Positions 5,356-22,531 of a stretch of 22,531 bases of DNA are shown piece after piece. A program made the translations under genes and the position numbers. Source of the DNA: a virus (lineage: Duplodnaviria; Heunggongvirae; Uroviricota; Caudoviricetes); the IMG/VR virus record IMGVR_UViG_2778261509_000018; one strand, 5' to 3'. Under the pieces are notes generated by a model. That model saw only the letters and a program-made list of their open reading frames with translations, was not told where the DNA came from and made no database searches. The stretch's first letter is position 1. Every line of letters starts with the position of its first letter.

Positions 5356-5372
5356 TTCAAACATCTCCCCAA

Positions 5373-6941: not shown

Positions 6942-7163
6942 AACTACTGGATGTCACGCCTAATAGCGTGATCCTGCCGAAATGCAGGGTAGCTCTACCC
7001 TTGTGGAGCAAACAAACCAAAACAATCTGACTATCTTTTATAAAAGACCGCAATATGTTTTTCATATTGTGGTCTTTGGCGTATTCGACATTTGACGCAA
7101 ATAAAACTCTCGCCATTCGTTGCAGGAGGGGGTTATTGCGTCATTAGTACAGGATATTAATAA

Positions 7164-7367
7164 ATGGCTAATTACAATTCATTAATTCGTCTCTCTGAAG
7201 TTCAAAGGCGAACTGGTTATAGCAAAGCATGGATTTATCGTCTTATTAGTCAGGGGAGGTTCCCTAAACAGGTAAAAATTGGAAGTCGGGCAATTGCTTT
7301 TGTTGAGTCTGAAATAGATGAATGGATTGAGAAGTGTATATTAGAATCTAGAGACGAGGTGGCCTGA
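7164..7367 (+). CDS. alpA: AlpA-family phage transcriptional regulator / excisionase-like HTH protein
   Basis: 67-aa protein with LSEVQRRTGYSKAWIYRLISQGRFPKQVKIGSRAIAF, the classic AlpA/MerR-like HTH; position right after a P4-type integrase. Confidence 0.8.
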   Translation: MANYNSLIRLSEVQRRTGYSKAWIYRLISQGRFPKQVKIGSRAIAFVESEIDEWIEKCILESRDEVA

Positions 7368-7798
7368 TGGAAAAGAAAAACCGCCCATTACAGGCGGCTA
7401 ATTCAGATATTCGTGTATCTGATGTTACGCCCCTTACAAAATCCCCTCAAGCACCAAAGCGCACACCGAAAAAGCATCGTGCCAGAGTCTATATGCTGCG
7501 TACTGGTATAGAGGGATGGACAGAAAATGACATTCTTCGCTACTGCCGTCTGTCTTCTGGTCGTAACTATGCAACAGAGTTAGAACGCCAGCTTGGAATC
7601 ACTCTGGAGCGTATCGACGAAAAGAATCCTGATGGTATCGGAACACACCTTCGCTACCGTTTCTCCTGCCGTGGTGATGTTCTGAAAGTGATCACTCATA
7701 TTAACCATCTTGCGAACATAAATGATCACAACGGACTTTCTCAGCAGGAAATTGCCGACATTCTGAAACTCTACCCGGACGCGTTTAACGCCGCCTAA
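7367..7798 (+). CDS. Hypothetical protein (143 aa), translationally coupled to alpA
   Basis: Start overlaps the alpA stop (TGATG); basic N-terminus; no motif recognised. Confidence 0.55.
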   Translation: MEKKNRPLQAANSDIRVSDVTPLTKSPQAPKRTPKKHRARVYMLRTGIEGWTENDILRYCRLSSGRNYATELERQLGITLERIDEKNPDGIGTHLRYRFSCRGDVLKVITHINHLANINDHNGLSQQEIADILKLYPDAFNAA

Positions 7799-7810
7799 CG
7801 GAGACTGAAA

Positions 7811-8644
7811 ATGAACATCGAAAAAAGCAGATTAATTTCTGAGGCCGCCCCTCATCTGAACGCCTCTCTGGGCACAATTAACGGTAATGAATTTGCCGCA
7901 ATTGTCCCGGTTATTCCTGGTCATATCGGTGGGCGTGAAACCAATATTGTTAGCGCAAAAGCGTTACACAAAGCGTTGGGCGTGGGAAAAGACTTCTCTA
8001 CATGGATCACTGATCGCATCTCTGAATATGACTTCACCATTGGGCACGATTACTCAGTCCATAAAACTATTTCCCCAAATTTGGGGAAAATCCCGAATGG
8101 CGCGGCTTACAGCAAGATTAAGCAGTCTGGCAGACCCGGCAAAGACTATCTGTTAAGTGTCGGAATGGCGAAAGAACTGGCAATGATCGAACGCAATGAT
8201 CAGGGGCGCGCTATCCGCCGTTATTTCATCCAGTGCGAGGAAGAATTACAGCGTAGCGTGCCTGAAATCGCCGCCCGCTATCGTCGCCAGCTAAAAGCCC
8301 GTCTCAGTGCCGCAAACAACTTTAAGCCAATGTGCGATGCGCTGAATATGGCCCGTGCCGAGATGGGTAAAACGACGCAGCAACACCACTACACAAACGA
8401 GAGCAATATGATTTCTCGTATCGTTCTTGGTGGGCTAACTGCTAAACAGTGGGCGCGGATAAATGGCTATTCTGGCGAACCTCGCGACCATATGAACGCA
8501 GAACAACTTGAGCACCTCTCATATCTCGAAAGCACCAATATCACGTTAATTGATATGGGCATGGAATATGAGCAGCGCAAAGGAGAACTCACCCGACTGT
8601 CGCAACGCTGGCTCGCCAAGCGTCTGGAGGCGGTCAATGTTTAA
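7811..8644 (+). CDS. Phage antirepressor-like protein (AntA/KilAC-like domain)
   Basis: Segment FSTWITDRISEYDF...GKDYLLSVGMAKELAMIERNDQGRAIRRYFIQCEE resembles antirepressor/KilAC domains as I recall them; assignment by recollection only. Confidence 0.55.
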   Translation: MNIEKSRLISEAAPHLNASLGTINGNEFAAIVPVIPGHIGGRETNIVSAKALHKALGVGKDFSTWITDRISEYDFTIGHDYSVHKTISPNLGKIPNGAAYSKIKQSGRPGKDYLLSVGMAKELAMIERNDQGRAIRRYFIQCEEELQRSVPEIAARYRRQLKARLSAANNFKPMCDALNMARAEMGKTTQQHHYTNESNMISRIVLGGLTAKQWARINGYSGEPRDHMNAEQLEHLSYLESTNITLIDMGMEYEQRKGELTRLSQRWLAKRLEAVNV

Positions 8645-8819
8645 GCCGACAGGAACACCACAACCTCAAAAACGCTACAAAGATGCCCACGGAGCACTCG
8701 TTACTGTCGAAAGCGTGTCTCACAACCGAGTGACGTTTTATCGCGACGGGTATCAATCGCCATGCGTACAACCGCTGGCGCGTTTCATGAAGGAGTTCGC
8801 GGAGGTTAACAAATGCTAA
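8637..8819 (+). CDS. Small hypothetical protein (60 aa)
   Basis: ATG overlaps the upstream stop (AATGTTTAA); the longer upstream extension in the ORF track is in a different frame from the preceding gene and is unlikely to be used. Confidence 0.35.
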   Translation: MFKPTGTPQPQKRYKDAHGALVTVESVSHNRVTFYRDGYQSPCVQPLARFMKEFAEVNKC

Positions 8820-9841
8820 CCGTCCAGAAGAAGACATTTTCACTGGCTGGTATGTCGCCAAAATCCAGCAATATGACAGCAAAGTCAGGCATTAATACAG
8901 CAGATACAAGCAAAGTTTATCATTTGCTGGTGGTAGGAGCGGATGCCTTAACTATGTCAGAAATTACGGTCGATGGTGTTAGCGTTGAGAAGGTCAGCGG
9001 CTGCGCCAGAGAATTTCTGGTCGTAGATCACCTGTTCTGCTCGTGTAGTGACTCCACAAAAACATTCGTCCACGTGCGTGACGTTAACGAAATGAGCGCG
9101 ATGTATTGTGCATCTGGTGCTTCCAATAGTGAGTTTTCGGAGTCCATAAAAAAGAGCTTGCCGTTATGCGGCAACACGGTTTATGGTTATAAGGCACCTC
9201 ATAAAACGGGTGCCGGGATTAGGACCCCGCAGGCAATCGAGGCGATACATGACGCGCCAGCGTCTTTTTTTGTATCGGCGCACACGCACACCTTATCAAT
9301 GGTGGGCTGTATGGGGCTGACTTCGGTCAGGCTGGTTTCCTTGATTGCCAGTAGTCCTAACCCTGTACAGTCCACCGCCAGCGAGCTTAGGACCTCCGGC
9401 GGTGGCTATAAACCATCAATCAAGGAGGCTGCCACATGCTGGCTACTACCCCTACCCAAAAACCGCAATTTATCTGGATTATCGCCGCAGTTCGCCGCGA
9501 TTGCCCGACAATTACCGCCAAAATTCATCATATTGCTGCCGAGTCTGAACGCGATGCTCGCCGTTCTCTGGTGCGCGATCACGTCTGCTTTTTTGCTGGT
9601 CGTATCCGCATGGAGGTGGCACATGATTAAAACCTACGATGTGCATATGGATCCCCTCGAACGCACAAGCCAGATCATCACACTGACAGAAGTGATTAAC
9701 GACATTCTGGTGAGCAACTCTCCCTCACGAGACGAAAGGCTGAAGGCGTTACTCGCGATATTGGATCTCGCCGTTCGTGACGTTCATTTCCTGCTGGAAG
9801 GTGGACAAATGCCAGTAAAAACGGGGGCAACCAATGAATAA
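8813..9841 (+). CDS. Uncertain long ORF (342 aa, Cys/Ser-rich); possibly two genes read through (8813 to about 9430, and 9623-9841, 72 aa)
   Basis: Open frame with ATG overlapping the previous stop (ATGCTAA); completely overlaps the Icd-like ORF in another frame; internal ATG at 9623 overlaps the Icd-like stop (ATGATTAA). Confidence 0.25.
9436..9630 (+). CDS. Host cell division inhibitor Icd-like small protein (64 aa)
   Basis: Strong Shine-Dalgarno AAGGAGG at 9422-9428, 7 nt before the ATG; sequence ([17 protein letters not shown]...) resembles Icd-like proteins of P4-like elements as I recall them. Confidence 0.4.
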   Translation: MLATTPTQKPQFIWIIAAVRRDCPTITAKIHHIAAESERDARRSLVRDHVCFFAGRIRMEVAHD

Positions 9842-10028
9842 CTCAATTAATACCCCTCGCCTTACGTCCGCACTTCAATTAATCGAGCAAGCAGCGGCTG
9901 TCCTGGTTGCTGTCAGTCTTTCGGCTGAAGAAATGGACGCTGCTGATGTCGTGGATGCGATTAAAGCGTGCTCATCTTTGGTTAACGATGCCCGTGCCGA
10001 GCTGGTAATTCTTGGGGGTGAAAAATGA
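9834..10028 (+). CDS. Small hypothetical protein (64 aa)
   Basis: Start overlaps the upstream stop (ATGAATAA); part of the coupled gene chain. Confidence 0.4.
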   Translation: MNNSINTPRLTSALQLIEQAAAVLVAVSLSAEEMDAADVVDAIKACSSLVNDARAELVILGGEK

Positions 10029-10288
10029 ATATCAACTTAATTTATCGTCATCCGTGTGAGCTGGAAATTGAATCATTGCTGGGGCGCGAAGAGCCATATC
10101 CAGACACATTCACTCCCGCAGATTGCGCGACTGAACGGCTTACCAGAGCGCGCACAGGTCTGGTTCATGTGATGAATGAGATTGTTCCCTCGGTGGGAGG
10201 GGAACAGGCGACAGTAATCAATAGCTGGCTACAAAAAGTTACCTCCCTGATAGATATCGGTTTAATCGATGTGGAGAGTGCGAAATGA
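10025..10288 (+). CDS. Small hypothetical protein (87 aa)
   Basis: ATGA start/stop overlap with the upstream ORF. Confidence 0.4.
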   Translation: MNINLIYRHPCELEIESLLGREEPYPDTFTPADCATERLTRARTGLVHVMNEIVPSVGGEQATVINSWLQKVTSLIDIGLIDVESAK

Positions 10289-10506
10289 CCAACATCCAGC
10301 TCATTGAAGCGCAATGTCGCATCGAACAGGTTCAGACTGTTTTAGGGTTCTGGCTTGAAGGGGCCAGCCCCAGCAACAGAGACAAGTTAATGATTGGCGC
10401 GGTTATGTCACTGCTCAATGGCGTACCAGAAGCTATTCAGGAAGCGGACGAATTGTTGGGCAAATATGAGTTACAGAATCATTCAGGCGAGGCGAAACAT
10501 GAATAA
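10285..10506 (+). CDS. Small hypothetical protein (73 aa)
   Basis: ATGA start/stop overlap with the upstream ORF. Confidence 0.4.
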   Translation: MTNIQLIEAQCRIEQVQTVLGFWLEGASPSNRDKLMIGAVMSLLNGVPEAIQEADELLGKYELQNHSGEAKHE

Positions 10507-11101
10507 TTTCTTAACTTTCCATGCAGAAGCAACGCCTGACGGCGTAAACATCATGTACCGCAGCAACGATGGCATGACAGAACGCGTTGAGGCCGTCTCA
10601 TATATTGATGCCGTAAATCGTCTGGATGCCGGGGATTATGACGATAAACCAGATGAAGGCATGTTTATACATCTCGCTATTGCCAGTGGCGGCAACCAGG
10701 GATATTTCGATTACACATCACAGCATCACGTGATTATGTGGCGCTGGCTGATAGCAACAGCATTCATCAATGAAATGAGAAAGGAAAACGGCACCGTCAG
10801 CATTATTGATGACAGTGGCAATCATTCCGTGGTTTCTGTTTATTCCAATGGCATCGTCGCCATGCCGCTGTATCCAGTAGCAGAGCGCCTCGCTATGGCA
10901 AACAACATTGAGGGCGCAATGATCGAGAAATATGGTGTTGATGTCGGAACAAAGAATGCCATCATTTTTTACAGCAACATGTTCGATGTCGAACAGGGAA
11001 CACTCACTTCGTTTGGGCGAGAAGTGCTTGCCGATCTTCACAACAGCTTTATTGCCGAACTAAACGAAAACGGCATCCCAGAAGCACCAGTGACGCACTA
11101 A
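10499..11101 (+). CDS. Hypothetical protein (200 aa)
   Basis: Start chosen at the ATG overlapping the upstream stop (ATGAATAA) rather than the track start at 10394, which overlaps the previous gene in another frame. Confidence 0.5.
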   Translation: MNNFLTFHAEATPDGVNIMYRSNDGMTERVEAVSYIDAVNRLDAGDYDDKPDEGMFIHLAIASGGNQGYFDYTSQHHVIMWRWLIATAFINEMRKENGTVSIIDDSGNHSVVSVYSNGIVAMPLYPVAERLAMANNIEGAMIEKYGVDVGTKNAIIFYSNMFDVEQGTLTSFGREVLADLHNSFIAELNENGIPEAPVTH

Positions 11102-11113
11102 ACGGGGGCCAGA

Positions 11114-13465
11114 ATGCGAAACATTGATCTTATCCGTCAGGTTATCAGTGCGTCTGAAAACAACTGGCCTCATGTGCTGGGCTGCCTGAACATAAATGTC
11201 CCTGACTCTCCGCGCCGTCATGCTCCCTGCCCTGCATGTGGGGGCAAAGATCGATTCCGGTTCGATGACAACGGGCGCGGTAGCTTCATCTGTAATCAGT
11301 GCGGCGCTGGTGATGGGCTGGATTTAATTAAACGCGTAAATAACTGCGACACAACAGAGGCGGCGCTTCTTGCCGCTGATGTTCTGGGTATTGATTACCG
11401 GACAACGGAAACACCAGAAGCCACCAGCCAGAAACGGGAACAACTGGAAACCGAGCGCCAGCGACGCGAACAGGAGCGCCTGAAAAGGGCAGAGAAGGAC
11501 GAACAACAAAGACGGGATACGTTTTCCCGTCAGTTTGATGACATGCGCAGAAAGGCTGTAAACGGCAAATCTGATTATCTGGTTGCGAAAGGGGTAGGTG
11601 ATTTTACATTCCCCGTGTTGCCCGATGGATCTCTGTTGCTGGCGCTGGTGGATAAATCCGGCGCAGTCACAGCAGCACAGACTATTACCCCACATGGTGA
11701 AAAAAGACTCCTGACAGGTTCGGCAAAGCGGGGGGCATATCACGCCATAAACGCACAGAAACGACCTCACAGCATCATAATTGCTGAGGGGGTGGCTACC
11801 GCCCTGTCGTGCCATTTAATTCGCCCTGACGCAATGACAGTGGCAGCAATCGACGCTGGCAACCTGTTGCCAGTAGCGGAAGTCATGCGCAGAACATATC
11901 CGCAGGCACAAATAATCATTGCCGCAGATAACGATCACCAGCAAGGAGACTCAGAAAGTGGAGGGATCAACACGGGGAAAGATGCCGCAGAGAGGGCCGC
12001 TATTTCCGTAGCTGGCAGGGTGTCTCTGCCACCGACTGACTATAAAGCCGACTGGAACGACTATCACCAACAACACGGGCTGGCGGCAGCCACAGCAGCA
12101 TTTAAAGATTCGATGTACCAGCCACGGGGGAAAGGGGCGCAGGTGAAAAATCACAAACAGTCAGTCGGGGCGCTGAATGAGATCAGTTCTGGCGAGGTGT
12201 TAAGCGATGATGAAATTGCTGTCCTCGAAGAAATCAACCGGACGTTTACGCATGTCACCATCGGCGGGAAACACAAGGTGGTGTCGCTAAAGCCTTCTCA
12301 AACCGGCGGTGTATCGCACGTTTTCGAGGATTTATCACAATTTCAGCATTATTTTCATCATAAACCGAGAGTCGCCAGAAAGCTGGCGGGATCGGCGTGG
12401 CTGTCATGGAGTGGGAAGAACTACAAGCCAGGAGGCGTAGGATTTTATCCAGTACCAGACAAATGCCCTGACGATGTTTTTAATCTGTATGAGGGGCTGG
12501 CACTGGAACCAATTGAAGGAGATTGCACGGTATACCTTAATCACCTGTTGCAGGTTGTCTGTGCCGGTAATGAAGAGGCATGCCAATATCTTATCCAGTG
12601 GATGGCGCACATTATCCAAAAGCCTGATGAAAAACCGTCCGTGGCAATCGTGATGAAATCTGTCCCGGGCACAGGGAAAGGCACAACGGTTAAACCGCTG
12701 CTGCAAATACTGGGGCAGTACGCCGCCCACATTAACGGGGCGGGACATATTTCAGGGCGCTTCAATTCAATACTTGCTAACAAGCTACTGGTATTTGCTG
12801 ACGAAGTGACGATCCACAAGCCGTCTGAAGCTGACAGACTTAAAGCGATTATTAGCGAACCGACGTTTAACCTTGAGCGCAAGGGAATTGATGCTGAACC
12901 AATGCCGAATTTTGCCCGGTTGATATTTGCCAGTAACAGCACACAGGTATTACAGGCAGGGATAAGAGAGCGTCGCTATCTCGTGCTTGAGCCATCTCCT
13001 GAAAAAGCACAGAGCCGGGAGTATTTTGATCGGCTGTACAGTTGGCTTAATGATGGCGGTGCCGCAAAGTTGCTTTGGCATCTTAAAGGGGTGGATCTCT
13101 CAGGTTTTGACCCTCAACGAGCGCCACAGACCGATGCCTTACGTGAAGAAATCTTGCTGGGGCTGTCTGGCGTTGAATTGTTTCTTTATGGCGAGCTAAT
13201 CAATGAACCTCCGTTTAATGGCGAAGTCCGTTTGTTTGCAAAGGATATGGTTAGTCGGTTTGTAGCGTGGTCGCTTGAGCGTGGGGAAAAGCTTAAAGAA
13301 CCAGCTGCCAGATCACTACTGGGTAAATCACTTGCACAAATGGGGCTGGTGAAGCATGGAAGACCAGACCGAGGGAATGGCGTGTTCTACGAACTACCAG
13401 AGGTCGGAGTTCTACAGGCTGCGTTTGCCCGTCTGATCGGTATGGGGGGTTATGATGTTTTTTAA
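11114..13465 (+). CDS. P4 alpha-type replication protein: zinc-binding primase (Toprim) fused to a D5-like helicase domain
   Basis: Zn-ribbon CPACGG...CNQCG near the N-terminus, Toprim-like IIIAEGVATALS and DNDHQ, Walker A VPGTGKGT and Walker B-like LLVFADE in the C-terminal half; 783 aa; downstream of int/alpA as in P4-like elements. Confidence 0.9.
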   Translation: MRNIDLIRQVISASENNWPHVLGCLNINVPDSPRRHAPCPACGGKDRFRFDDNGRGSFICNQCGAGDGLDLIKRVNNCDTTEAALLAADVLGIDYRTTETPEATSQKREQLETERQRREQERLKRAEKDEQQRRDTFSRQFDDMRRKAVNGKSDYLVAKGVGDFTFPVLPDGSLLLALVDKSGAVTAAQTITPHGEKRLLTGSAKRGAYHAINAQKRPHSIIIAEGVATALSCHLIRPDAMTVAAIDAGNLLPVAEVMRRTYPQAQIIIAADNDHQQGDSESGGINTGKDAAERAAISVAGRVSLPPTDYKADWNDYHQQHGLAAATAAFKDSMYQPRGKGAQVKNHKQSVGALNEISSGEVLSDDEIAVLEEINRTFTHVTIGGKHKVVSLKPSQTGGVSHVFEDLSQFQHYFHHKPRVARKLAGSAWLSWSGKNYKPGGVGFYPVPDKCPDDVFNLYEGLALEPIEGDCTVYLNHLLQVVCAGNEEACQYLIQWMAHIIQKPDEKPSVAIVMKSVPGTGKGTTVKPLLQILGQYAAHINGAGHISGRFNSILANKLLVFADEVTIHKPSEADRLKAIISEPTFNLERKGIDAEPMPNFARLIFASNSTQVLQAGIRERRYLVLEPSPEKAQSREYFDRLYSWLNDGGAAKLLWHLKGVDLSGFDPQRAPQTDALREEILLGLSGVELFLYGELINEPPFNGEVRLFAKDMVSRFVAWSLERGEKLKEPAARSLLGKSLAQMGLVKHGRPDRGNGVFYELPEVGVLQAAFARLIGMGGYDVF

Positions 13466-13494
13466 TATAGTCTTTTTACAAGAAGATCGTTTTT

Positions 13495-13598
13495 ACCTGT
13501 ACCACCTATACCACTTTGCTAATTCAGTATTAAAAACAATGTGTTATAGTGGTACAGGTCAATATCTTACCTATACCAGACCTGTACCACCTATACCA
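13495..13598. repeat. Iteron cluster 1: repeated CCTRTACCA 9-mers (within ACCTGTACCACCTATACCA units) in both orientations; candidate replication origin
   Basis: Direct units at 13495-13513 and 13580-13598, a partial unit at 13568-13578, and an inverted TGGTACAGGT at 13550-13559; immediately 3' of the primase-helicase gene. Confidence 0.5.
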
Positions 13599-13641
13599 TT
13601 AACAAACGCATTTCTTCTGGCTGGCTGAGAGGGAACAGCCA

Positions 13642-13872
13642 ATGATGAGCACACCATTTTACAAAGTGCGCCAGTTAGCTTCTTCCTCTGGCTGGCAGCT
13701 ACGGTTTGAGGGGCGTTCAGACTGGCTACCCATTGCGGCATGGGCGAATGTTGAAATGTGTATTGACGGCGATACCGTTGAAATCATTATTCCCTGCGTG
13801 GCAAGTCGGGACGGCTGTATAGAGCCAACAGATATGGCAGCAGAAATCAGAGAGGTAAAACATGAACAATAA
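13642..13872 (+). CDS. Small hypothetical protein (76 aa)
   Basis: ORF between the two iteron clusters; weak GAGGG Shine-Dalgarno; overlaps the start of the next ORF. Confidence 0.4.
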   Translation: MMSTPFYKVRQLASSSGWQLRFEGRSDWLPIAAWANVEMCIDGDTVEIIIPCVASRDGCIEPTDMAAEIREVKHEQ

Positions 13873-14599
13873 CTATTGCATACCGCAGGGAATGACCAGA
13901 ACGGAGCGCGAAGAATTAAAAAGTTTCGCTACACAGTGCGGGAATGCTGGCGACATCCAAAGTCTGGAACGCACTTTAATTATGATTGCGCACTGGATGC
14001 GTCAGGGGCAAAGGGTTTCATTTACTGAATATGCCAGCCAGTGGACAGAGGCACAGCGCGAACGGAGCGACGGTAATCACTCAACACCCGAAATGGCGAA
14101 GCAATGGCCTTTCAGTGGTAAACGCTGTATCAGTCCCGGTGGTTCAGATTATTACCCTGCTGGTGTGGGAGATGAGCCATGTTGTGACGAGACTGAAATC
14201 CGCCACGCAGTGACAGTAATTACCGCTGAATACCCACAATTTAACCTTGACGGACTGGCGCTCCACAACCGGAATGCGGACTGGGAAAACCCGCTTGATA
14301 ACCCGTCATTTATCGTATCGGCGAAAAGCTGCCTGAGATGGATCAGAGACAACGGGATGAGTAATGCCCAGATTGAGAGCTTCCCGCAGGATAACCCCAC
14401 ATCTGACACGTTGAAGCATGAAGTGGAGCGATATAACCAGATAAACCACCAGCACAGTGATCACCCGCACTATATCCCCAACGGAGCATTTATTGCGGCG
14501 ATGGTGGCAAGCGGCTACAAGGTTAAGCCAGCGGGAAGAATGAACGCATTTTTCAATATTTCAAAAAAAGGATTATGTGCTGCTATGGGTAAAAATTAA
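13862..14599 (+). CDS. Hypothetical protein (245 aa)
   Basis: Uninterrupted ORF with start overlapping the previous gene; no motif recognised. Confidence 0.55.
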   Translation: MNNNYCIPQGMTRTEREELKSFATQCGNAGDIQSLERTLIMIAHWMRQGQRVSFTEYASQWTEAQRERSDGNHSTPEMAKQWPFSGKRCISPGGSDYYPAGVGDEPCCDETEIRHAVTVITAEYPQFNLDGLALHNRNADWENPLDNPSFIVSAKSCLRWIRDNGMSNAQIESFPQDNPTSDTLKHEVERYNQINHQHSDHPHYIPNGAFIAAMVASGYKVKPAGRMNAFFNISKKGLCAAMGKN

Positions 14600-14605
14600 A
14601 TAAAT

Positions 14606-14709
14606 GGTACAGGTCTGTACAGGTGGGGAGAGGTCATTTTTACCCACCTGTACCACCTGCAGGCCGCGCTACACAAGGGTTTGTGACATGGTGGTACAGG
14701 TGGTACAGC
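14606..14709. repeat. Iteron cluster 2: TGGTACAGG / CCTGTACCA copies in both orientations
   Basis: TGGTACAGG at 14606-14614, CTGTACAGG at 14617-14625, CCTGTACCA at 14648-14656, tandem TGGTACAGG-TGGTACAG at 14693-14709; same 9-mer family as cluster 1, about 1.05 kb away. Confidence 0.5.
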
Positions 14710-15073
14710 AAAAACAGCGATTTTCTTTATAAGGTATGTTTTGCTCATCTGGCAGACGGAGGTATTCGCTGCGGTTTGGCACGTAGCCCAGAACAGCAAA
14801 GAGTTTTACGAGACTTTTGTAAAATCCAGTGTACAAGGGCGTGACGTTTTTGAAGGAGAGACCTACGAAATTTTCGTAGTTCAAAAAATAGCCTCTGAGA
14901 TGTTGTTATGCCTGTTCAGCAAACCATCCGCATAGCTGATCGCGAATCAAATTACCAATGGAGCCAGAAGCAAGGGCAGAACTGGAAAGCGCCTGCCGTG
15001 AAGAGTAATGCGACATCATAAATATAGTTTTTAGAGTCCATAAAAAACCTGTCAAAACCTGACATACAGAACG

Positions 15074-15107
15074 ATGCCACCAGCTACTGAGCGGTGGCAT
15101 TTTTTTG
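15074..15107 (+). terminator. Strong rho-independent terminator (ATGCCACC-N11-GGTGGCAT followed by T7)
   Basis: Perfect 8-bp GC-rich stem plus a run of seven T; ends an about 400-bp stretch with no convincing ORF. Confidence 0.6.
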
Positions 15108-15140
15108 TGCTATTTGTTTCATATTTTGCAATCACAATGA

Positions 15141-15176
15141 TGAATGTTGCGTTTTGTGAAACTATAATGACTGTTG
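15141..15176 (+). promoter_or_regulatory. Candidate promoter for the 15202-18951 operon (-10 TATAAT at 15164-15169)
   Basis: Consensus -10 hexamer about 35 nt upstream of the first ORF start; the -35 element is weak. Confidence 0.3.
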
Positions 15177-15201
15177 TTTTATACAGTTCTAAGGGGACGT
15201 T

Positions 15202-15375
15202 ATGGCTATTTCAGTAAAGCCAGTATTGATAAGTGAGAAGCAAATGGAAGCGATAAAGAAAATTCAGGAGGAGCAGCGTAAAAAATCAGAGGTAGGAGTT
15301 GCGCCAACGATCCACGAAATTGCTCGGGGATTAATGGATAAGGCGCTGGCTTACACTTTAACTGGACGTGGGTAA
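15202..15375 (+). CDS. Small hypothetical protein (57 aa), first gene of the cargo operon
   Basis: Not in the ORF track (below its size cutoff); AAGGGGA Shine-Dalgarno 5 nt upstream of the ATG; its stop is 4 nt before the next start; possible small DNA-binding or regulatory protein. Confidence 0.4.
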   Translation: MAISVKPVLISEKQMEAIKKIQEEQRKKSEVGVAPTIHEIARGLMDKALAYTLTGRG

Positions 15376-15379
15376 ATTT

Positions 15380-16846
15380 ATGGCTACTTGGCAACAAGGA
15401 ATCAACTCAGGCGGTTTTCTGGCTGGCATCGGTACGCAAAACGAGAATGCGCCAAAGGCAAGCGACATTAACGCAACGCTTGGTCTGATCCGCGAAAACA
15501 ATGAACTGGCTCGCTCAGGTGCAAATAACGTTGCTCTGACAGGTCTTCGTGGTCTGGCTGGAGTTGCTGATATTTATAAGCAGCAGCAACAGCAGGAGCG
15601 TAAAGCGGCATTCCAGAAAGGTTATGCAGATGCTTATGCGTCCGGTGACAGGGAGCAGATGCGTAATCTTATTACAGCATTCCCAGAAGAGTTTGAGGAA
15701 GTCCGTAAAGGGATGAGTTATGTCGATGATGCTCAAAGGGATGATTATGGCAATCTGGCGCTCAAAGCACAGGTAGCCTCATCGCTTGGTCCGGGCGCAT
15801 TTGGCAGGTTCATGATGGATAATGAGCAGGAGATGCGTCGTTTAGGTATCCCTCCAGAAACTATTGCTGAAATGCAGGTTAATGACCCGCAGGGCTTCCA
15901 GCATTTCGCAGGTAATCTGGCGCTGTTTTCTCTCGGTCATGAGAAGTATTTCGATATCAAAGATCAAATGGAAGGTCGGGATATTGAGCGTGGCAAGTTG
16001 GCAGAGACAATCCGCAGCAATCAGGCTGGCGAAGCACTTCAGGCGAGAGGGCAGGATATTAGCCGAGCAAATGCGTTAACGTCAGCATATGCACCAACAG
16101 CAGCAATGCAGAATTACAATCAGTACGCGCAAATGTTAAAGGCGGATCCAGAGGGGGCGGCGGCATTTGCGGCAGCGGCTGGAATTAATACAAACGCCAA
16201 AAAATTAATGAGTGTTAGAGAAAACGATGATGGCACTGTCACAAAATACTACACAGACGGAAGTGAAGAGCAGGGAAAACTAAACCAGCCAATATCTGGA
16301 GATGGGTTTCGTCCAATAGCTTTGCCAACAGCCCAAAAGATCATGGAAAAGTCGCCAGAAGGGGCTAAAAAAGCTGCTGGATTTGCATACAGGGTTAGGG
16401 ATGCTCTTGATTCAATAGATACACTGAAAGACCAGCTTAGCCCACAGCGAGTGGCGATCATTAATAATGCTTTGGGTAATGGGACGCTGGCTAACTTAAC
16501 GCTCAGCCCAGCAGAGCAGCAATACGTTGTTAATGCTAATGACGCAATAATGGCAATACTCCGTCAGGAAACAGGGGCATCTATCCTACCAGCTGAAATG
16601 TCCAAATATTATCAAATGTATTTCCCTCAGCCTGGTGATTCCACAAAAACCATTGATACCAAGCGCCGGAAGATGGAAAACCAGTTCAATTCGCTGAAAG
16701 CTGCTTCTGGTCGAACTTATGATGCTTTGCGGGTTATTTCAGCAGTTGACAGAGGAACTGCTTCTTCGTCGCAGACATTGCCGCAATCTGAGCAGGTATC
16801 ACAGCCAGCAGCCAGCAGTAACTTTTCTTCACTATGGGGTGATTAA
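15380..16846 (+). CDS. Hypothetical Ala/Gln-rich protein (488 aa)
   Basis: Long ORF, start taken at the ATG at 15380 (the track's GTG at 15368 is less likely); stop overlaps the next start (TAATG); composition suggests a largely helical protein; no enzymatic motif recognised. Confidence 0.7.
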   Translation: MATWQQGINSGGFLAGIGTQNENAPKASDINATLGLIRENNELARSGANNVALTGLRGLAGVADIYKQQQQQERKAAFQKGYADAYASGDREQMRNLITAFPEEFEEVRKGMSYVDDAQRDDYGNLALKAQVASSLGPGAFGRFMMDNEQEMRRLGIPPETIAEMQVNDPQGFQHFAGNLALFSLGHEKYFDIKDQMEGRDIERGKLAETIRSNQAGEALQARGQDISRANALTSAYAPTAAMQNYNQYAQMLKADPEGAAAFAAAAGINTNAKKLMSVRENDDGTVTKYYTDGSEEQGKLNQPISGDGFRPIALPTAQKIMEKSPEGAKKAAGFAYRVRDALDSIDTLKDQLSPQRVAIINNALGNGTLANLTLSPAEQQYVVNANDAIMAILRQETGASILPAEMSKYYQMYFPQPGDSTKTIDTKRRKMENQFNSLKAASGRTYDALRVISAVDRGTASSSQTLPQSEQVSQPAASSNFSSLWGD

Positions 16847-18951
16847 TGGCTAAAGCATGGAAAGATGTTATCGCCTCTCCACAGTATCAGGCGTTAGCAC
16901 CAGAACAAAAAGCGCAGGCTCAGGAGCAATACTTCAATGAAGTCGTTGCCCCGAAAGCCGGAGAAAGTGTAGAGCAGGCTAAGCAGGCTTTTTATGCTGC
17001 CTATCCACTACCATCAACGAATGCAATAGACCGATCCCAATCAGCAACTCAAAATATTCAACATACATCATCTGATAATTCTCTTGCGTCAGGGTATGCA
17101 AAGTTAGCTACTCAGCAAAGAGAGGGGCTTGAGCGTTCAGCAGAACAGGGAGCCAGTCTTGGGGCTGCGATGCGCGATGCTATAACAGGCGAAAGCCGAA
17201 TGACTCCAGAGATGGAGAGACTGCAAAATGTCGCCTCTGCCCCAGAATTGAACTCACTAAGCATGGATGCCCTAAAGGCTGGATGGTCTCAACTTTTCGG
17301 CTCTGACGCGTCTCAGGAAAAGATTCTTCAGGGAATGGGGGCGACATTAAGGCAGGATGAGAAGGGGAATACTATCGTTTCTCTGCCATCAGGTGATTAT
17401 GCCCTGAACAAGCCGGGTTTATCACCGCAAGACCTGACCTCGTTTCTTGCTAATGCGTTGGCGTTTACACCAGCGGGCAGGGCCGGAACGGTGCTGGGGG
17501 CCATAGGAAAATCAGCAGCTACAGATTTAGCACTACAGGGAGCCACCAGCCTTGCTGGTGGAGAAGATATTGATCCGTTACAAACGGTAATTTCTGCTGG
17601 CATTGGTGGTATTGGTAAGGGGCTGGAAAATACAGCGAGTGCGGTTTCGAGGGCTGTTCGTGGTGATATGTCGCCTGAAGCAAAGGCTGCTGTCGACTTT
17701 GCATCGGAAAGAAATCTGCCGTTAATGACCAGTGACATGCTGAAAGATAAAACCTTTATGCAGAGTCAGGCTCAGACATTAGGCGAAAGAGTTCCTTTTT
17801 TTGGAACCGGTAAGAATCGGCTGAATCAACAACAAGCACGAGAAAATTTAGTCAGAACATTTAGCGATGGTCTGGGTGGCATTTCTGATAAACAGCTTTA
17901 TGAATCTGCGACTAAAGGGCAACAAAAATTCATTGAGGCAGCAGGAAAGCGATATAACCGCATAATTGACGCTATGGGGGATACCCCTGTCGATCTCTCA
18001 AACACGGTAAAAGCTATCGACAATCAGATTGCCGTGTTAAGCCGCCCGGGCAAATCTCAGGATAGAGCCGCGGTAAAAGTCTTGCAGCAATTTAAAGACG
18101 ATATCACCAGCGGACCAAATGACCTGCGTCTGGCGAGGGAAAACAGAACCGATCTTCGAAAGCGATTTATGGCGTCATCTGACACTGTTGATAAAGATAC
18201 GCTCCAGAAAGCCAGCGATATTATCTACAAGGCATATACGGCGGATATGAAAAAAGCCGTAGCCAAAAATCTTGGAGCAGACGAAGCCATTAATATGGCA
18301 AGGGTTGATCGCTCATGGTCTAAATTCAATGACATGATGGGAAGAACGCGCGTTCAAAAGGCAATAGCCAGCGGCAAGGCCACGCCTGAGGATGTAACAA
18401 AACTCGTTTTTAGCCAAAGCCCATCAGAACGTTCTCAGCTTTACAGGCTTCTGGATGACAATGGTAGGCAAAACGCACGAGCAGCCATAGTTCAGAATGC
18501 TGTAGATAAGGCGACTGATCCGTCTGGAAATATCAGTGTTGAGAAGTTTATTAATGCGTTACACCGGAACAGGAAGCAATCAGCAACTTTCTTTAAAGGC
18601 GTACATGGAAAGGAACTGGACGGCGTTATTAAATACCTCAACGATACAAGACACGCGGCAAAAGCGAACGTTCAAAACTTAAATGGTCAGCAGCTTTATG
18701 GATTGTTAGTTGGTGGTGGCATCATAAACGCAGCAGTATTAGCGGGGATGCTAAAAACGGCTGCGTTTGTTGTTCCTGCTGCTGGTGCCGTAGGCGGAGC
18801 AGCGAAGGCATACGAAAGCCCTGTTATACGAAATGCCTTGTTACGTCTGGCAAATACGCCAAAAGGTAGCACAGCATATGACAGAGCGATCAGTACGGTC
18901 ACACAATCGCTCACCAGAGTCGCACAGGCATCACAAAAAGAATCTCAATAA
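16846..18951 (+). CDS. Hypothetical Ala/Gly-rich protein (701 aa) with a C-terminal glycine-zipper hydrophobic hairpin; candidate membrane-inserting effector
   Basis: C-terminal segment LYGLLVGGGIINAAVLAGMLKTAAFVVPAAGAVGGAAKAY is about 37 mostly apolar residues with a central Lys, about 45 residues from the C-terminus; the rest is hydrophilic and A/Q/G-rich. Confidence 0.7.
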   Translation: MAKAWKDVIASPQYQALAPEQKAQAQEQYFNEVVAPKAGESVEQAKQAFYAAYPLPSTNAIDRSQSATQNIQHTSSDNSLASGYAKLATQQREGLERSAEQGASLGAAMRDAITGESRMTPEMERLQNVASAPELNSLSMDALKAGWSQLFGSDASQEKILQGMGATLRQDEKGNTIVSLPSGDYALNKPGLSPQDLTSFLANALAFTPAGRAGTVLGAIGKSAATDLALQGATSLAGGEDIDPLQTVISAGIGGIGKGLENTASAVSRAVRGDMSPEAKAAVDFASERNLPLMTSDMLKDKTFMQSQAQTLGERVPFFGTGKNRLNQQQARENLVRTFSDGLGGISDKQLYESATKGQQKFIEAAGKRYNRIIDAMGDTPVDLSNTVKAIDNQIAVLSRPGKSQDRAAVKVLQQFKDDITSGPNDLRLARENRTDLRKRFMASSDTVDKDTLQKASDIIYKAYTADMKKAVAKNLGADEAINMARVDRSWSKFNDMMGRTRVQKAIASGKATPEDVTKLVFSQSPSERSQLYRLLDDNGRQNARAAIVQNAVDKATDPSGNISVEKFINALHRNRKQSATFFKGVHGKELDGVIKYLNDTRHAAKANVQNLNGQQLYGLLVGGGIINAAVLAGMLKTAAFVVPAAGAVGGAAKAYESPVIRNALLRLANTPKGSTAYDRAISTVTQSLTRVAQASQKESQ

Positions 18952-18969
18952 CTGGTTAGCCATGGATGG

Positions 18970-19389
18970 CTAATTTTTGTTCTTTGCTCTCATCCATAGG
19001 TAAAGAAGGGAAAGAACAAGACAAAAAACAGAGAATAGATAACCTACCTCATATGGTGCGCCAAAAAAATTAGCTATTGATACGGGCAAAAAAGCTGAAG
19101 CGATCAAAATTGAAAGGCAAAAAATAAGCCCAGTAATATAGTTTATTAAATTCTTAAATGAGAAACGTTTTGCTTGATTTACGGTCTTAACGAACGATCG
19201 CTTAACGACGGATAAAAGCAAATAGATGGCGACAGTTGCTAATGCCCCTTTCCACCAGTCTGGATATAGTTTTGCGACAATCAGACCAAGTAAAACCATG
19301 ATGACAGCCTGAGCATTCACACCAACCCTCCCTTTAGCTTTGTTTAGAATGGCAATCATCATATATCCAAGACATGGCATTTGGTACAT
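18970..19389 (-). CDS. Small polytopic inner-membrane protein (139 aa, 3-4 predicted TM helices); immunity-like candidate
   Basis: Four hydrophobic stretches (AQAVIMVLLGLIVAKL, ALATVAIYLLLSVV, ITGLIFCLSILIASAFLPVSIANFF, YLFSVFCLVLSLLYLWM); AT-rich; convergent with the 701-aa gene, 19 bp downstream of it. Confidence 0.55.
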   Translation of the reverse strand: MYQMPCLGYMMIAILNKAKGRVGVNAQAVIMVLLGLIVAKLYPDWWKGALATVAIYLLLSVVKRSFVKTVNQAKRFSFKNLINYITGLIFCLSILIASAFLPVSIANFFGAPYEVGYLFSVFCLVLSLLYLWMRAKNKN

Positions 19390-19435
19390 AGCTTGGGTCG
19401 GGATTTCAAATCCGCTCCCAGTTGATGGGGCCGTT

Positions 19436-19830
19436 ACAGTACGCGCATATCCGCTTTATGTGAAACAGGAAGATTTTTCTGATATCACTGCCACAGCAAA
19501 ACACCAATTTCGAGACAAGTACGCGCGCGAGGGGTATCAGTTGCAAAAAATTTTGCAACTACGTCCGACCAGTACGCGCACGATGGAGGGGAGTACCATA
19601 AAACTGTTCTCTACATAAGTCAGAGTAGTGGTGATGTGTTGATTATCGGCGTATATGCGCACAGGACGCGCTATGACGATGTTTTATGCGGGTACACCAA
19701 TCACATGTATCTGGTGTGATAAATCGCGTTACATGACCTCTCATGTTGTGCTGGTGGTTATCACGACTTTCTGAATCTGGCCTTTGCCTGATATTTTGCG
19801 ACAAGTACGCGCGCGTAGCATCGAAATTAT
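19436..19830. repeat. Cluster of AGTACGCGC(GCG) GC-alternating palindromic repeats (copies at 19436, 19514, 19567, 19810)
   Basis: Shared core ATTTYG-N-GACAAGTACGCGCGCG at 19514-19529 and 19810-19830, containing the palindrome TACGCGCGCGTA; degenerate copies at 19436-19450 and 19567-19582; an 8-bp inverted repeat TTGCAAAA-AA-TTTTGCAA at 19541-19558 lies between copies. Confidence 0.45.
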
Positions 19831-19966
19831 CGGATGGCGTATGCTGCTGGCAATATGAAGACCGATAGTATTAACCGAAAAGCGATTAAGGAGTGCCAAC
19901 TTTTCAGTAGAGAAACTAGCCAGCATAGGAAAATGTAGAAATTACCCAATTAATAGGTAAAAGTTA

Positions 19967-20194: not shown

Positions 20195-21157
20195 ATGGCT
20201 GTTCCGGTTAAGGTTCATAAAGAATATGATGAACTTGTCGATTTATTGCTGTCTCGGGGTATGGATGTGCCAGATCGCGAACATGCTATCAAGAAAATCT
20301 CACAAGTAGGCTACTACCGATTATCAGGCTTTTGGTACCCCTGCCGAATCCCCCATATAACAACAGACAATATTAGAACCAGACTCGATCAGGTTCGTCC
20401 AGGTACTAATTTTCGCGCAGTATATGACCTCTATTTATTCGATAAAAATCTGCGTTTGCAGATGATGAATGCGTTAGAACGCATTGAGGTTTATGTTCGG
20501 TCAGTTATTGCTCATGAGCTTGGTAAGATATCTCCTTTAGCATATCTTGATGACTCGCTAATAAATCCAAAACACTTTAGACCACGTTCCCATGGTCGCC
20601 CAAGCGCCAGAGAAGAATGGATAAATAAACATAATGCCGAGATTGCTAAAAGTCGCGAAGACTTTATCAAATGGCATGAAAACAAGTACGAAGGTCTTCC
20701 TTTCTGGGTGGTTATTGAAGTGTGGGACTTCGGCTTAATGTCAAAGTATTATGCGATGCTAAAAGACAGCTATCGCAACAGGATACTATCTAGGCTAGGG
20801 ATAGCGGCAGGCAATGGAGCTATCTTCCAAAACTGGCTTAGCGCAATGAATGTGCTAAGGAATCGGTGCGCTCACCATTCACGCATCTGGAACAAGGTCA
20901 ACGAACCAAGATTAATGCCTTTGCCAAATGAGCCGTACTTTGAACAATTAAATATGAATGATGATGCGTACGAAAGAATGTACGGAATGATCGCTGTGTT
21001 ATGGTTTTTAGTGAAAAAAATTGGACCGGGATCTGACTGGATAAAAAAAGTTGCCAACCTTGTAGATAACAAGCCTAACTTACCAGGATGTAACCTGACA
21101 GCCATGGGATTACCTGATAATAACGGTTTCCCAAGGCATTTATTTGATATTGAATAA
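20195..21157 (+). CDS. Abortive infection protein, Abi_2 (AbiD/AbiF-like) family
   Basis: N-terminal ELVDLLLSRGM...YYRLSGFWYP and the signature LRNRCAHHSRIWN are characteristic of AbiD/AbiF-type Abi proteins as I recall them; 320 aa. Confidence 0.85.
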   Translation: MAVPVKVHKEYDELVDLLLSRGMDVPDREHAIKKISQVGYYRLSGFWYPCRIPHITTDNIRTRLDQVRPGTNFRAVYDLYLFDKNLRLQMMNALERIEVYVRSVIAHELGKISPLAYLDDSLINPKHFRPRSHGRPSAREEWINKHNAEIAKSREDFIKWHENKYEGLPFWVVIEVWDFGLMSKYYAMLKDSYRNRILSRLGIAAGNGAIFQNWLSAMNVLRNRCAHHSRIWNKVNEPRLMPLPNEPYFEQLNMNDDAYERMYGMIAVLWFLVKKIGPGSDWIKKVANLVDNKPNLPGCNLTAMGLPDNNGFPRHLFDIE

Positions 21158-21158: not shown

Positions 21159-21614
21159 TTATAGCGATGGCGCTGAATGTAGCGCCACTGATAACTTTTC
21201 AGCATTGCTTCCCTGACGCTTCCACGCGCTGTAAATATCTTTATCCCATGCCTTACCAGCTTTTGTTTGATAGCCTGCTTCATTGATCCGTTCAGCTATC
21301 ACGCGCCCATTATCAAATCCCTGTCGGATGGTATCGGCAATGATCTTTATAACTGCCGTTTCGTTATATGGCTTTGGTGGGATGTTCGGCTTTCCGGCAA
21401 TAAGCGACGCAGCGGCTTTTTCCATGCGCTCCACCAGCCCAAGCATTCGTGAATCAATAGACTTTTCCGGCTGTCCCAGCTTCATGCGAATCGCATCAAC
21501 AAGCCAGGAGGTTTTATCCCCTCCAGAAGCGAGAACAGACCGATTAAACTCATCCTGCAATTCAGATGGGATGCGGAACGCGACCAGATTAGATTTGCTC
21601 ATTGCAAAGACCAT
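21159..21614 (-). CDS. Putative DNA-binding protein with an N-terminal ribbon-helix-helix (Arc/CopG-like) segment (151 aa)
   Basis: N-terminus SKSNLVAFRIPSELQDEFNRSVLASGGDKTSWLVDAI has the beta-strand plus two-helix pattern of RHH repressors; its stop is 1 nt from the Abi stop (convergent); alternative start at 21602. Confidence 0.55.
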   Translation of the reverse strand: MVFAMSKSNLVAFRIPSELQDEFNRSVLASGGDKTSWLVDAIRMKLGQPEKSIDSRMLGLVERMEKAAASLIAGKPNIPPKPYNETAVIKIIADTIRQGFDNGRVIAERINEAGYQTKAGKAWDKDIYSAWKRQGSNAEKLSVALHSAPSL

Positions 21615-21662: not shown

Positions 21663-21766
21663 CGCTCAAATATCAGCCAGAAAATAACGGACCAATCACA
21701 AAGCTATCGCTGTGTTGTTGGTTCAGAGCTGGGCTGTGTTGGTTCAAAATAATCTGAGAGGCAGAA

Positions 21767-22048
21767 ATGATAAGGGACAGGAAAGCTGAAGAGCTGGAGT
21801 CAAAAGGGCTATACCGGAGAGCTGCCGCACGATGGATGGAAGTCATGCTGTTATGCACCGAGGACGATGATCGGGAATGGATAAAGCGCCGCCGTGAAAC
21901 GTGTCTGGAGAACGTGAAGCGCCCGCCCGTGAAGGTTGAGGACTTTGGCGACCTGCATAAAGCTGTTACCGAAACGCAACACCGCATGGGGATAGCGCAA
22001 CCGAACGGTAACGCCTTCCGGTTAAATGGCGGCAAGAGGCAAAGGTAG
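21767..22048 (+). CDS. PerC-family transcriptional regulator-like protein (93 aa)
   Basis: KGLYRRAAARWMEVM...REWIKRRRETCL resembles the PerC/Pch signature (GLWRRAA.RW) as I recall it; hairpin CCAGAGG-N8-CCTCTGG at 22052-22073 follows the stop. Confidence 0.45.
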   Translation: MIRDRKAEELESKGLYRRAAARWMEVMLLCTEDDDREWIKRRRETCLENVKRPPVKVEDFGDLHKAVTETQHRMGIAQPNGNAFRLNGGKRQR

Positions 22049-22096
22049 ACCACCAGAGGGAAATCATCCTCTGGCTGGCGGTTTCTGGTATTTCGG

Positions 22097-22120
22097 GACA
22101 AGTACGCGCGCGCGTAGCAC
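22097..22120. repeat. Fifth copy of the GACAAGTACGCGCGCG palindromic repeat (contains TACGCGCGCGCGTA)
   Basis: Same core and same upstream context (ATTTCGGGACAAGTACGCGCGCGCGTAGCAC) as the copies at 19514 and 19810; same orientation. Confidence 0.45.
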
Positions 22121-22345
22121 CCAATCGGTGAGGAAATAGCGGCGACCTGAATGGTCAAAATCACAACGCAGCTATCCCCGTAAGCAGCGCTTAACGGAAT
22201 AGCAGTAACCTGAATCCAGTGGGGAGGGGGTAGTCAAATCTCTACAGCCCTGACTATCCGGGACTGCCCGCCCCATCGTTTTTTTATACCCGCGAAAAAT
22301 GAAATTTAATCCGGGCGTGTTTCATCCTTCCAGAGGGTATGACGT

Positions 22346-22531
22346 ATGACACCACGCGAAATAGCCTTATTGACCATCGCCAAACTTGAGCACGGAGGCC
22401 ACCAGCTTACACAGGCAGATCAACGGGAGATAGAACGATCAGTTAATGCCGATATAGCCCGGCGCGACAGGTTCCGCGAAATGATGCGAGCACCTGCCTA
22501 CCAGTGGAAGAAGCCAGCGCCGCGCAGGTAG
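22346..22531 (+). CDS. Small hypothetical protein (61 aa); stop codon is the last three bases of the window
   Basis: ORF with basic C-terminus; no motif recognised. Confidence 0.35.
   Translation: MTPREIALLTIAKLEHGGHQLTQADQREIERSVNADIARRDRFREMMRAPAYQWKKPAPRR

Follow-up and report, generated by a model that had tools for sequence, protein, structure and literature searches.

P22-type ejection genes in the cargo slot of an EcCIMP1-type phage-inducible chromosomal island and their proposed role in genome delivery

The gp20 and gp16 proteins of phage P22, which are of the Sf6 gp12/gp13 type, are packed in the capsid and released on adsorption, and they form a conduit in which gp20 serves the passage of DNA through the periplasm and gp16 its passage through the inner membrane. 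The two must be a cognate pair, and together they set the sensitivity of the phage to the superinfection exclusion protein SieA (PMC10883804; Leavitt et al., mBio 2024). The closest described satellite is EcCIMP1, a phage-inducible chromosomal island (PICI) of Escherichia coli MP1, which excises, circularizes and is transduced only with the P22-like podophage Kapi1 (PMC11773190; Pick, Stadel and Raivio, ISME J 2025). Those authors remarked on "DNA transfer"/DUF2824-like genes downstream of the EcCIMP1 primase, for which they guessed a role in packaging, and reported that the island adds a superinfection immunity against Kapi1 that is unexplained and has no known defense system behind it (PMC11773190). 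Here we analyzed a 22,531-nucleotide stretch of viral DNA (IMG/VR record IMGVR_UViG_2778261509_000018, referred to below as the window) and within it a block of four genes, namely a 57-residue leader gene, genes for proteins of 488 and 701 residues, and a convergent gene for a small membrane protein. All four open reading frames (ORFs) were confirmed at the positions given by an initial annotation, which had presented the block as a toxin/immunity or membrane-depolarizing defense module and a misplaced pair of phage ejection genes as the main alternative. The two large proteins proved to be clear homologs of gp20 and gp16, a result that bears out the alternative and that the annotation itself had listed as refuting its headline. 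We consider it probable that the block is a genome-delivery module of an EcCIMP1-type PICI, with which the satellite supplies its own injection conduit by way of helper particles.

The 488-residue protein matched the Pfam family PF16928 (Inj_translocase, "DNA/protein translocase of phage P22 injectosome") with an E-value of 6.6e-85 and a score of 284.7 bits, against a cutoff of 29.7, and the match spanned positions 1–217 of the 218 in the profile. The whole protein was also matched by phrog_917 (E 5.7e-144, profile positions 1–504 of 509), and its N-terminal half (residues 1–239) was 56% identical to P22 gp20. The first ~65 residues are nearly invariant among the island protein and those of P22, Kapi1 and a prophage of E. 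coli S88, as would be expected of a protein that needs to assemble into P22-like capsids. The ATG at 15380 is the correct start of this ORF because the homologs likewise begin MATWQQ. RefSeq names the gene "phage DNA ejection protein".

The 701-residue protein was matched by phrog_770 ("DNA transfer protein") over residues 19–699 with an E-value of 4.1e-163, and BLASTP against P22 gp16 gave an alignment of 482 residues with 30% identity (E 4e-53). Closer relatives are found in prophages: residues 69–701 share 94% identity with the gp16 encoded by a CUS-3-like prophage in E. coli S88, and the protein is 74% identical to the gp16 of a P22-like prophage of Yersinia, which bears PF26808. The first 68 residues of the island gp16 differ in type from those of both P22 and CUS-3. 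In some genomes RefSeq assigns the gene to the "P22-gp16 family". Scans of the 701-residue protein with Pfam and NCBIfam profiles gave no gp16 match, NCBIfam matched none of the four proteins, and solved structures of relatives of gp20 or gp16 were not found by sequence. The statement of the initial annotation that no motif was recognizable reflects a reading made without search tools; PF16928 and phrog_917 for the one large protein and phrog_770 for the other match very strongly.

The arrangement of the pair is also that of P22. The gene for gp20 immediately precedes gene 16 and is coupled to it, an order also seen in P22, in Kapi1 and in the prophages of S88 and Yersinia, and the TAATG overlap described earlier was found (TAA at 16844–16846, ATG at 16846–16848), equivalent to the 1-nucleotide coupled overlap of P22 (11484/11484). 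The 4-nucleotide gap said to precede the gp20 gene is likewise present (ATTT at 15376–15379). Full-length homology, gene order, the conserved gp20 N-terminus and a convergent membrane-protein gene downstream are thus shared with P22, whereas genes for portal, coat, scaffold, tail, terminase and lysis are absent from the island, its cassette has neither gp14 nor gp7, and the pair is driven by the island's promoter and leader gene instead of a phage late operon. At the DNA level, positions 17074–19342, which cover gp16 from residue ~77 to its end and the small minus-strand gene, match the CUS-3-like, P22-type prophage of S88 with 93.3% identity. In that prophage the genes are located in a complete morphogenesis operon, comprising coat, gp4, gp10, needle, gp14, gp7, gp20, gp16, the membrane gene, Arc/Ant and tailspike. 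These comparisons show a mosaic relationship, in which the gp20/gp16 pair, together with the membrane gene in the position of sieA, appears to have been exchanged recently with P22-like prophages.

The C-terminal part of gp16 holds the segment that had suggested a pore-former. A Gly/Ala-rich stretch with a central lysine (K637) is indeed present by hydropathy; it is, however, a conserved part of gp16, found in the prophage proteins as well, and Pfam gave no colicin channel match for the protein. Mutations of P22 gp16 that escape SieA affect G532 and P546 (PMC10883804). In our alignment P546 is opposite K637, in the middle of the segment, and G532 is opposite about G613, just upstream of it; the region of gp16 targeted by SieA therefore corresponds to the Gly/Ala segment of the island protein. 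The island gp16 may associate with the membrane and transport DNA across the inner membrane; the feature of this kind seen in its sequence is the C-terminal hydrophobic segment.

The host element of the block is an EcCIMP1-type PICI and not a prophage. From position 5310 onward the window is 99.99% identical to the E. coli sequence NZ_AP022409, in which the tRNA is intact; in the window only the 3' 46 nucleotides of tRNA-Thr are present (5310–5355), which is why ARAGORN finds no tRNA there. The left attachment site is within this remnant and the right one is beyond the end of the window. The gene order runs from attL through integrase, AlpA, a 143-residue ORF, AntA, DUF4222, an "Ash" region and small ORFs to a P4-alpha-like primase, and continues with ORFs of 76 and 245 residues, the block, AbiD, a 151-residue minus-strand ORF and PerC. 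Pfam and PHROG scans of all sizeable ORFs revealed no capsid, terminase, tail or lysis genes. The satellite context proposed by the initial annotation was therefore right, but the element is not a canonical P4. It has a P4-alpha-like primase, AlpA and C4/isrK RNAs in common with P4-like satellites, and their sid, psu and delta genes, which govern capsid size and transactivation, were absent from the same scans.

The relationship to EcCIMP1 is close. Positions 5310–11099 are 95.7% identical to EcCIMP1 at the nucleotide level, and the two islands share the att core, the thrW site, the backbone (int, alpA, the 143-residue gene, antA, DUF4222, the ash/C4 region and small ORFs), the leader gene with its promoter, a fragment resembling gene 3 and pac, and the PerC end. 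They differ in primase type (DUF5906 against DUF927) and in their cassettes. The EcCIMP1 cassette, like that of NC101, consists of gp14, gp7, a gp20 and a gp16 with a transglycosylase domain (439 and 906 residues, respectively, in EcCIMP1), followed by a lipoprotein gene, whereas the cassette in the window consists of the 488-residue gp20, the 701-residue gp16, the convergent membrane protein and AbiD.

Comparison with further islands indicated that the cassette occupies a dedicated position. DNA conserved among the islands borders it on either side (14800–15350, 19395–19880 and 21749–22531), and the first of these segments, which includes the leader gene and the DNA upstream of it, is 93% identical among related E. 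coli islands whose cassettes differ. The W284 island has another gp20/gp16 pair, and the JP538 island has gp14-gp7-gp20-gp16 with gp16 annotated as a pseudogene. We extended the survey by way of the 57-residue leader family to loci L011–L032 (positions ~10150–18000), from Serratia, Klebsiella, Raoultella, Erwinia, Pantoea, Lonsdalea, Chimaeribacter, Leclercia, Pectobacterium and Rahnella. In Serratia the leader gene is followed by gp20 and gp16, the same pair that was found in an Edwardsiella island reached through the membrane-gene family. In Erwinia, Pantoea, Chimaeribacter and Lonsdalea it is followed by a protein of ~108 residues (phrog_19131) and a tape measure protein, in Klebsiella quasipneumoniae by a tape measure protein with a transglycosylase domain and a Dit-like protein, and in Raoultella by a protein of 605–608 residues with similarity to tape measure proteins and transglycosylases. 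Leclercia has an internal virion protein and three large ejectosome-type proteins, the latter also present in two other Klebsiella species and Pectobacterium; the T7-type internal virion protein sets in the slot matched phrog_418, 1044/992, 3003/1145 and 684. Rahnella has a baseplate hub, and a Serratia silvae locus has a truncated tape measure gene only. Judged by these family assignments, the cargo belongs in every case to the machinery for bringing DNA into a recipient. The block occupies a cargo slot and is not debris.

Other satellites likewise keep homologs of some helper structural genes, as in capsid-forming PICIs, the SaPI Ccm/CpmAB systems and AH14b, but their genes act on capsid size and shape or on tail assembly, whereas the parts kept here are those that cross the envelope. 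The nearest precedent is the Pseudomonas element AH14b, which has a homologue of tail assembly protein I and a lipoprotein gene (PMC4936722). For satellites with ejection or tape measure proteins, our literature search returned only the remark of Pick et al. and the partial parallel of AH14b. It found no publication describing a PICI slot that supplies a foreign injection conduit, no earlier recognition that these islands hold a complete specificity-determining ejection pair, and no description of the parallel with tape measure and internal virion proteins across genera behind a conserved leader and promoter.

Approximately 90 bp before the leader gene form the only portion of the spacer conserved over about 12 genera, and the same control architecture was found ~90 bp upstream of position 10001 in the surveyed loci. 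In the window this region holds two TTTCAT..TGCAAT-like direct repeats, a TATAAT at 15163–15168, a palindrome at 15171–15186 and the ribosome-binding site AAGGGGA. The promoter claimed for the operon was thus correct as to a perfect TATAAT, but there is no acceptable -35 element and a consensus scan did not list it. The palindrome has the form CTGT-N8-ACAG, the core of a LexA box, and is the only such site in the window. The combination of TATAAT and palindrome recurs in 11 loci, and in the islands of all genera compared the palindrome begins 2–3 nucleotides past the -10 element. Its canonical spacing was found in E. coli, Serratia, one Erwinia island, two of five Pantoea islands and Lonsdalea; in the remaining genera it is 1 nucleotide shorter. 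We therefore rejected a canonical LexA box as a universal feature, and SOS control is, for the same reason, offered as a hypothesis. The region is fairly described as an activator-dependent promoter with an operator, for which LexA and the leader protein are candidate ligands, alone or together. A strand-helix-helix pattern is predicted for the leader protein, which also shows a weak structural similarity to ribbon-helix-helix domains. Mimicry of a helper late promoter or qut site upstream of the operon was also considered and rejected, as the sequence did not resemble the late promoter region of either P22 or Kapi1. The terminator reported upstream of the operon is present as a stem followed by a T run (Table 1) and is kept in the E. 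coli islands.

At least 80% of the block was held by 314 of 5,426 complete E. coli genomes, a count that is a lower bound, and the island-specific leader/promoter segment was held by 504 of them. The ratio of non-synonymous to synonymous substitution rates (dN/dS) ranged from 0.13 to 0.39 over the four genes, with values of 0.13 for the leader gene, 0.30 for gp20 (island versus island), 0.24 for gp16 (island versus prophage) and 0.39 for the membrane gene. The four-gene arrangement is not due to chance, and its genes are under purifying selection.

The small membrane gene at the end of the block was described earlier as a convergent, AT-rich gene for a protein of 139 residues with three to four transmembrane helices. 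Orientation and composition were as described (GC 0.40 against ~0.47), and the prediction is of four hydrophobic helices. A length of 116 instead of 139 residues is probable for the product, because conservation begins at residue 34, several homologs start MNAQ and the GTG at 19320 is preceded by a strong ribosome-binding site, AAGGGAGGG. The family comprises 22 clusters, all from Enterobacterales, and has no Pfam entry. Its members were found in the Yersinia P22-like prophage, the S88 prophage, and islands in Edwardsiella and one metagenome contig, and in every context examined the gene was convergent and lay 17–18 nucleotides past the gp16 stop, or overlapped it (locus L010). Co-occurrence across genomes, which the initial annotation had proposed as a check, was thus confirmed, although the constant partner is a virion ejection protein and not a toxin.

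This position is that of sieA in P22. The spacer between gp16 and the membrane gene is 18 nucleotides in the window and that between P22 gene 16 and sieA, also convergent, is 22 nucleotides, and the two proteins are of similar size with several predicted membrane helices. The resemblance to SieA (PF26849) ends there. BLASTP gave an E-value of 0.99 for homology to SieA, tblastn against 50,697 phage records gave no match, and hhalign of an 11-sequence alignment of the membrane family with a 10-sequence alignment of SieA returned a probability of 4.8%. The conserved cytoplasmic motif of SieA, FxRYPxEAxxFNK, is absent, the helix pattern is different, and PF26849 is recorded on none of the 22 family members. 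We therefore rejected the idea that the ORF encodes a divergent SieA. An AlphaFold2 model had a confidence score (pLDDT) of 55, too low for comparison of folds. An exclusion, or immunity-like, role is possible and is argued from position. In EcCIMP1 (locus L007, 12632–13330), and equivalently at 14900–15598 of locus L005, the place of the membrane gene is taken by a plus-strand gene for a predicted lipoprotein of 232 residues with the lipobox MIKNLLLILSLSLLAGC. It had no PHROG match, and it is a candidate source of the unexplained superinfection immunity of EcCIMP1.

The role that we propose for the block is in keeping with the specificity of the pair in P22, since the minimal island cassette is exactly the gp20/gp16 pair that determines sensitivity to SieA. 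On induction of the helper, the island would express its own gp20 and gp16 from the activator-type promoter, perhaps also under SOS control, and these would be built into particles made by the helper, giving them a conduit of a type unlike that of the helper. Between EcCIMP1 and Kapi1, the only satellite and helper proven to work together, identity is as low as 26% for gp20 and 24% for gp16, as compared with 83% for gp14. A foreign conduit could allow the island to enter cells that block, or do not support, the ejection proteins of the helper. Lysogens of helper-like phages would be among them: the island depends on entering cells in which a helper is resident or will arrive, and lysogens of P22-like phages often make exclusion proteins that block injection by their own phage type. 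The membrane protein would most likely be a prophage-style accessory at the inner membrane, possibly imposing a SieA-like block on injection; this is the weakest step of the proposal. More tentatively, and with less confidence than we attach to the delivery role itself, we suggest that these islands form a widespread Enterobacterales PICI family with a separately regulated slot for the delivery proteins of whichever phage type is exploited, so that helper particles fitted with a foreign conduit might enter cells that exclude the helper.

Several points weigh against this proposal. That the island gp20 and gp16 enter particles and are needed for transfer is something we infer from the genes, and the transfer of EcCIMP1 measured by Pick et al. 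was very low (PMC11773190). Helper and island proteins would mix in the capsids, and because mismatched gp16/gp20 pairs fail in P22 hybrids the net effect could be interference instead of benefit. With gp14 and gp7 missing from the cassette, the helper must provide both. No similarity to SieA could be detected in the membrane protein, whose structural model is poor, and EcCIMP1, the island reported to confer superinfection immunity, has a lipoprotein gene in its place. Lastly, the LexA-like box is canonically spaced in only some of the genera.

The first of the alternatives is interference with the helper, or defense by poisoning. If island gp20 and gp16 co-assembled in helper virions as mismatched, non-functional ejection complexes, the helper progeny would be less infective, an effect comparable to the sabotage of capsid or tail assembly by other satellites. 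P22 hybrids in which only gp16 or only gp20 is foreign do assemble the foreign protein and are non-infectious (PMC10883804), the pairs of satellite and helper are very divergent, assembly-interference systems are known on PICIs (Tai, PMC11364771), and the island also bears AbiD. We nevertheless regard interference as unlikely, since EcCIMP1 did not reduce the Kapi1 titers obtained after induction (PMC11773190), and since the island always has a matched pair, often with gp14 and gp7 too, which would not be needed to interfere; the full-length tape measure proteins and complete ejectosome sets in the slot of other genera are better suited to the supply of a function. Quite unlikely in our view is that the purpose of the block is superinfection exclusion, with the membrane protein of a resident island blocking P22-like injection, possibly together with intracellular gp16 and gp20. 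The location of the membrane gene in the sieA slot of prophages and islands fits such a role, as does the action of SieA on the C-terminal regions of gp16 and gp20 (PMC10883804), and it would account for an immunity of EcCIMP1 that has no known defense system (PMC11773190); PADLOC, moreover, gives nothing for the four proteins. But EcCIMP1 itself does not have the membrane gene, the SieA homology and motif are lacking, neither gp20 nor gp16 has a signal peptide, so that both would stay in the cytoplasm if made in the cell, and exclusion accounts for the small gene without accounting for the retention of two large virion proteins.

The two remaining explanations fit the data less well. A piece of a P22-like prophage could have recombined into the island and be without function there, and the 93% nucleotide identity with prophage DNA over 17074–19342, which indicates a recent exchange, and the gp16 pseudogene of JP538 are what such a remnant would leave. 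This is improbable given that both ORFs are intact and full length with dN/dS well below 1, that the cassette keeps to one slot, preceded by a conserved leader and promoter, and that different cassettes have been acquired independently at this slot, with functional parallels in about 12 genera. The reading of the block as a pore-forming toxin (701 residues) with its immunity protein (139 residues) owes its appeal to a superficial likeness to a colicin operon, produced by the hydrophobic Gly/Ala hairpin, the convergent membrane protein and the SOS-box-like promoter. We rejected it as scarcely credible. Pfam searches at E ≤ 1 gave no colicin channel or immunity family apart from noise, PADLOC models matched none of the four block proteins while they did match the neighboring AbiD and PD-T7-1, the homology of the 701-residue protein to gp16 extends from end to end and takes in the hairpin, and the same gene pair is present inside complete P22-like morphogenesis operons. 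A delivery module that provides the satellite with its own conduit is therefore the explanation we prefer.

Another part of the island bears on the identity of its helper. Approximately 105 nucleotides on the minus strand (8961–9067), located where the "Ash family" ORF (8813–9841) is extended at its N-terminus, are 87–90% identical to gene 3, the small-terminase gene, of P22 and IME10. The similarity starts exactly at the 22-bp pac site of P22, where the window reads GAATGTTTTTGTGGAGTCACTA and P22 reads GAAGATTTATCTGAAGTCGTTA. Besides the window, EcCIMP1, JP538, W284 and an island of Escherichia sp. (L018 among the loci) have kept this fragment; Kapi1 has an unrelated small terminase (TerS) and lacks the fragment. 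We regard the fragment as a candidate mimic of a pac site, which would explain how the island is packaged. Transfer of EcCIMP1 by Kapi1 is very low (PMC11773190), and this could be explained by the absence of a P22/IME10-type terminase sequence from Kapi1. If so, P22-like phages with a terminase of the P22/IME10 type are predicted to be efficient helpers. Small-terminase-like genes (Terminase_2; phrog_51/57) were found in islands of Edwardsiella (L009, 7008–7508) and Raoultella (L015, 12142–12648 and 14168–14752), and packaging strategies thus differ within the island family, as some members have a TerS gene and others the pac-like fragment.

Table 1. Features of the island and its cargo block, in window coordinates.
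Feature	Position	Strand	Remarks
attL core TCCTATTATC	5339–5348	+	Marks the left island boundary, within what is left of the tRNA-Thr (thrW) 3' end; identical to the att core of EcCIMP1
Island backbone: integrase, AlpA, AntA, isrK and C4 RNAs, P4-alpha-like primase	5521–13465	+	From Pfam, PHROGs and Rfam
Intrinsic terminator	15083–15108	+	GC-rich stem 15083–15098, then TTTTTTT; closes the upstream primase/245-residue unit
Putative promoter/operator of the cargo operon	15117–15200	+	Conserved in relatives; function inferred
Leader gene, 57 residues	15202–15375	+	First in the operon; marker of the island family; possibly a ribbon-helix-helix regulator
gp20-type ejection protein, 488 residues	15380–16846	+	Homolog of P22 gene 20, full length
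gp16-type ejection protein, 701 residues	16846–18951	+	Homolog of P22 gene 16, full length
Gly/Ala-rich hydrophobic segment of gp16	18694–18801	+	Residues ~617–652, central K637; Kyte-Doolittle ≥1.6
Hairpin between the convergent genes	18954–18975	.	9-pair stem, then T run; candidate bidirectional terminator; overlaps the 3' end of the minus-strand ORF
Small membrane protein gene, sieA slot	18970–19389	-	139 residues at most, probably 116 from GTG 19320

The surroundings of the block have features of their own. Rfam identified, above the gathering score, the Hfq-binding small RNA isrK (9194–9270, plus strand) and a C4 antisense RNA of the P4/P1-type RNA immunity (9295–9382, plus strand), and because both are inside the "Ash family" ORF much of this ORF may be non-coding. 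Downstream of the block, AbiD/Abi_2 (20195–21157, plus strand; PADLOC E 2.7e-57) is followed by a convergent ORF of 151 residues (21159–21614, minus strand) and a PerC-family regulator (21767–22048, plus strand), and an Abi_2 gene is found at the same relative position in islands of Serratia, Erwinia and Edwardsiella. The motif GCGCGTACT(T/G)GT, which resembles an iteron, occurs in one orientation in four to five copies at 19437–19813 and at 22098–22109, against 0.09 expected by chance. The copies at 19437–19813 are in a gene-free region of ~490 bp (19395–19880) that is 96.5% identical to EcCIMP1 though its flanks differ, and this region may serve as an origin of replication or bind a regulator at several sites. 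Upstream of attL, a second element is located in tandem at thrW (1–5300), with a Dcm-type methylase and an EcoRII endonuclease (1–2683) and the defense protein PD-T7-1 (3435–4784; PADLOC E 2.8e-156).

In its parts this locus is ordinary, as both phage protein families are known and the type of island has recently been published, and its analysis removes a false lead, since it is not a new toxin or defense system. Studies of satellites have centered on capsid size, packaging specificity and lately tails, whereas the proteins consistently kept here are those that cross the envelope, which in P22 are the targets of superinfection exclusion. The locus raises the readily testable question why a satellite should carry ejection genes, and the pac-site-like gene 3 fragment of P22/IME10 and the SOS-box-like operator are direct experimental handles. 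If satellites bring their own conduit, this would explain how they reach lysogens protected by exclusion, and it would bear on the prediction of the host range of transfer, on the low transfer of EcCIMP1 by Kapi1 and on its additional superinfection immunity. Such a conduit would represent a new class of satellite-helper interaction, in which the step that is pirated is entry into the cell rather than capsid size or packaging.

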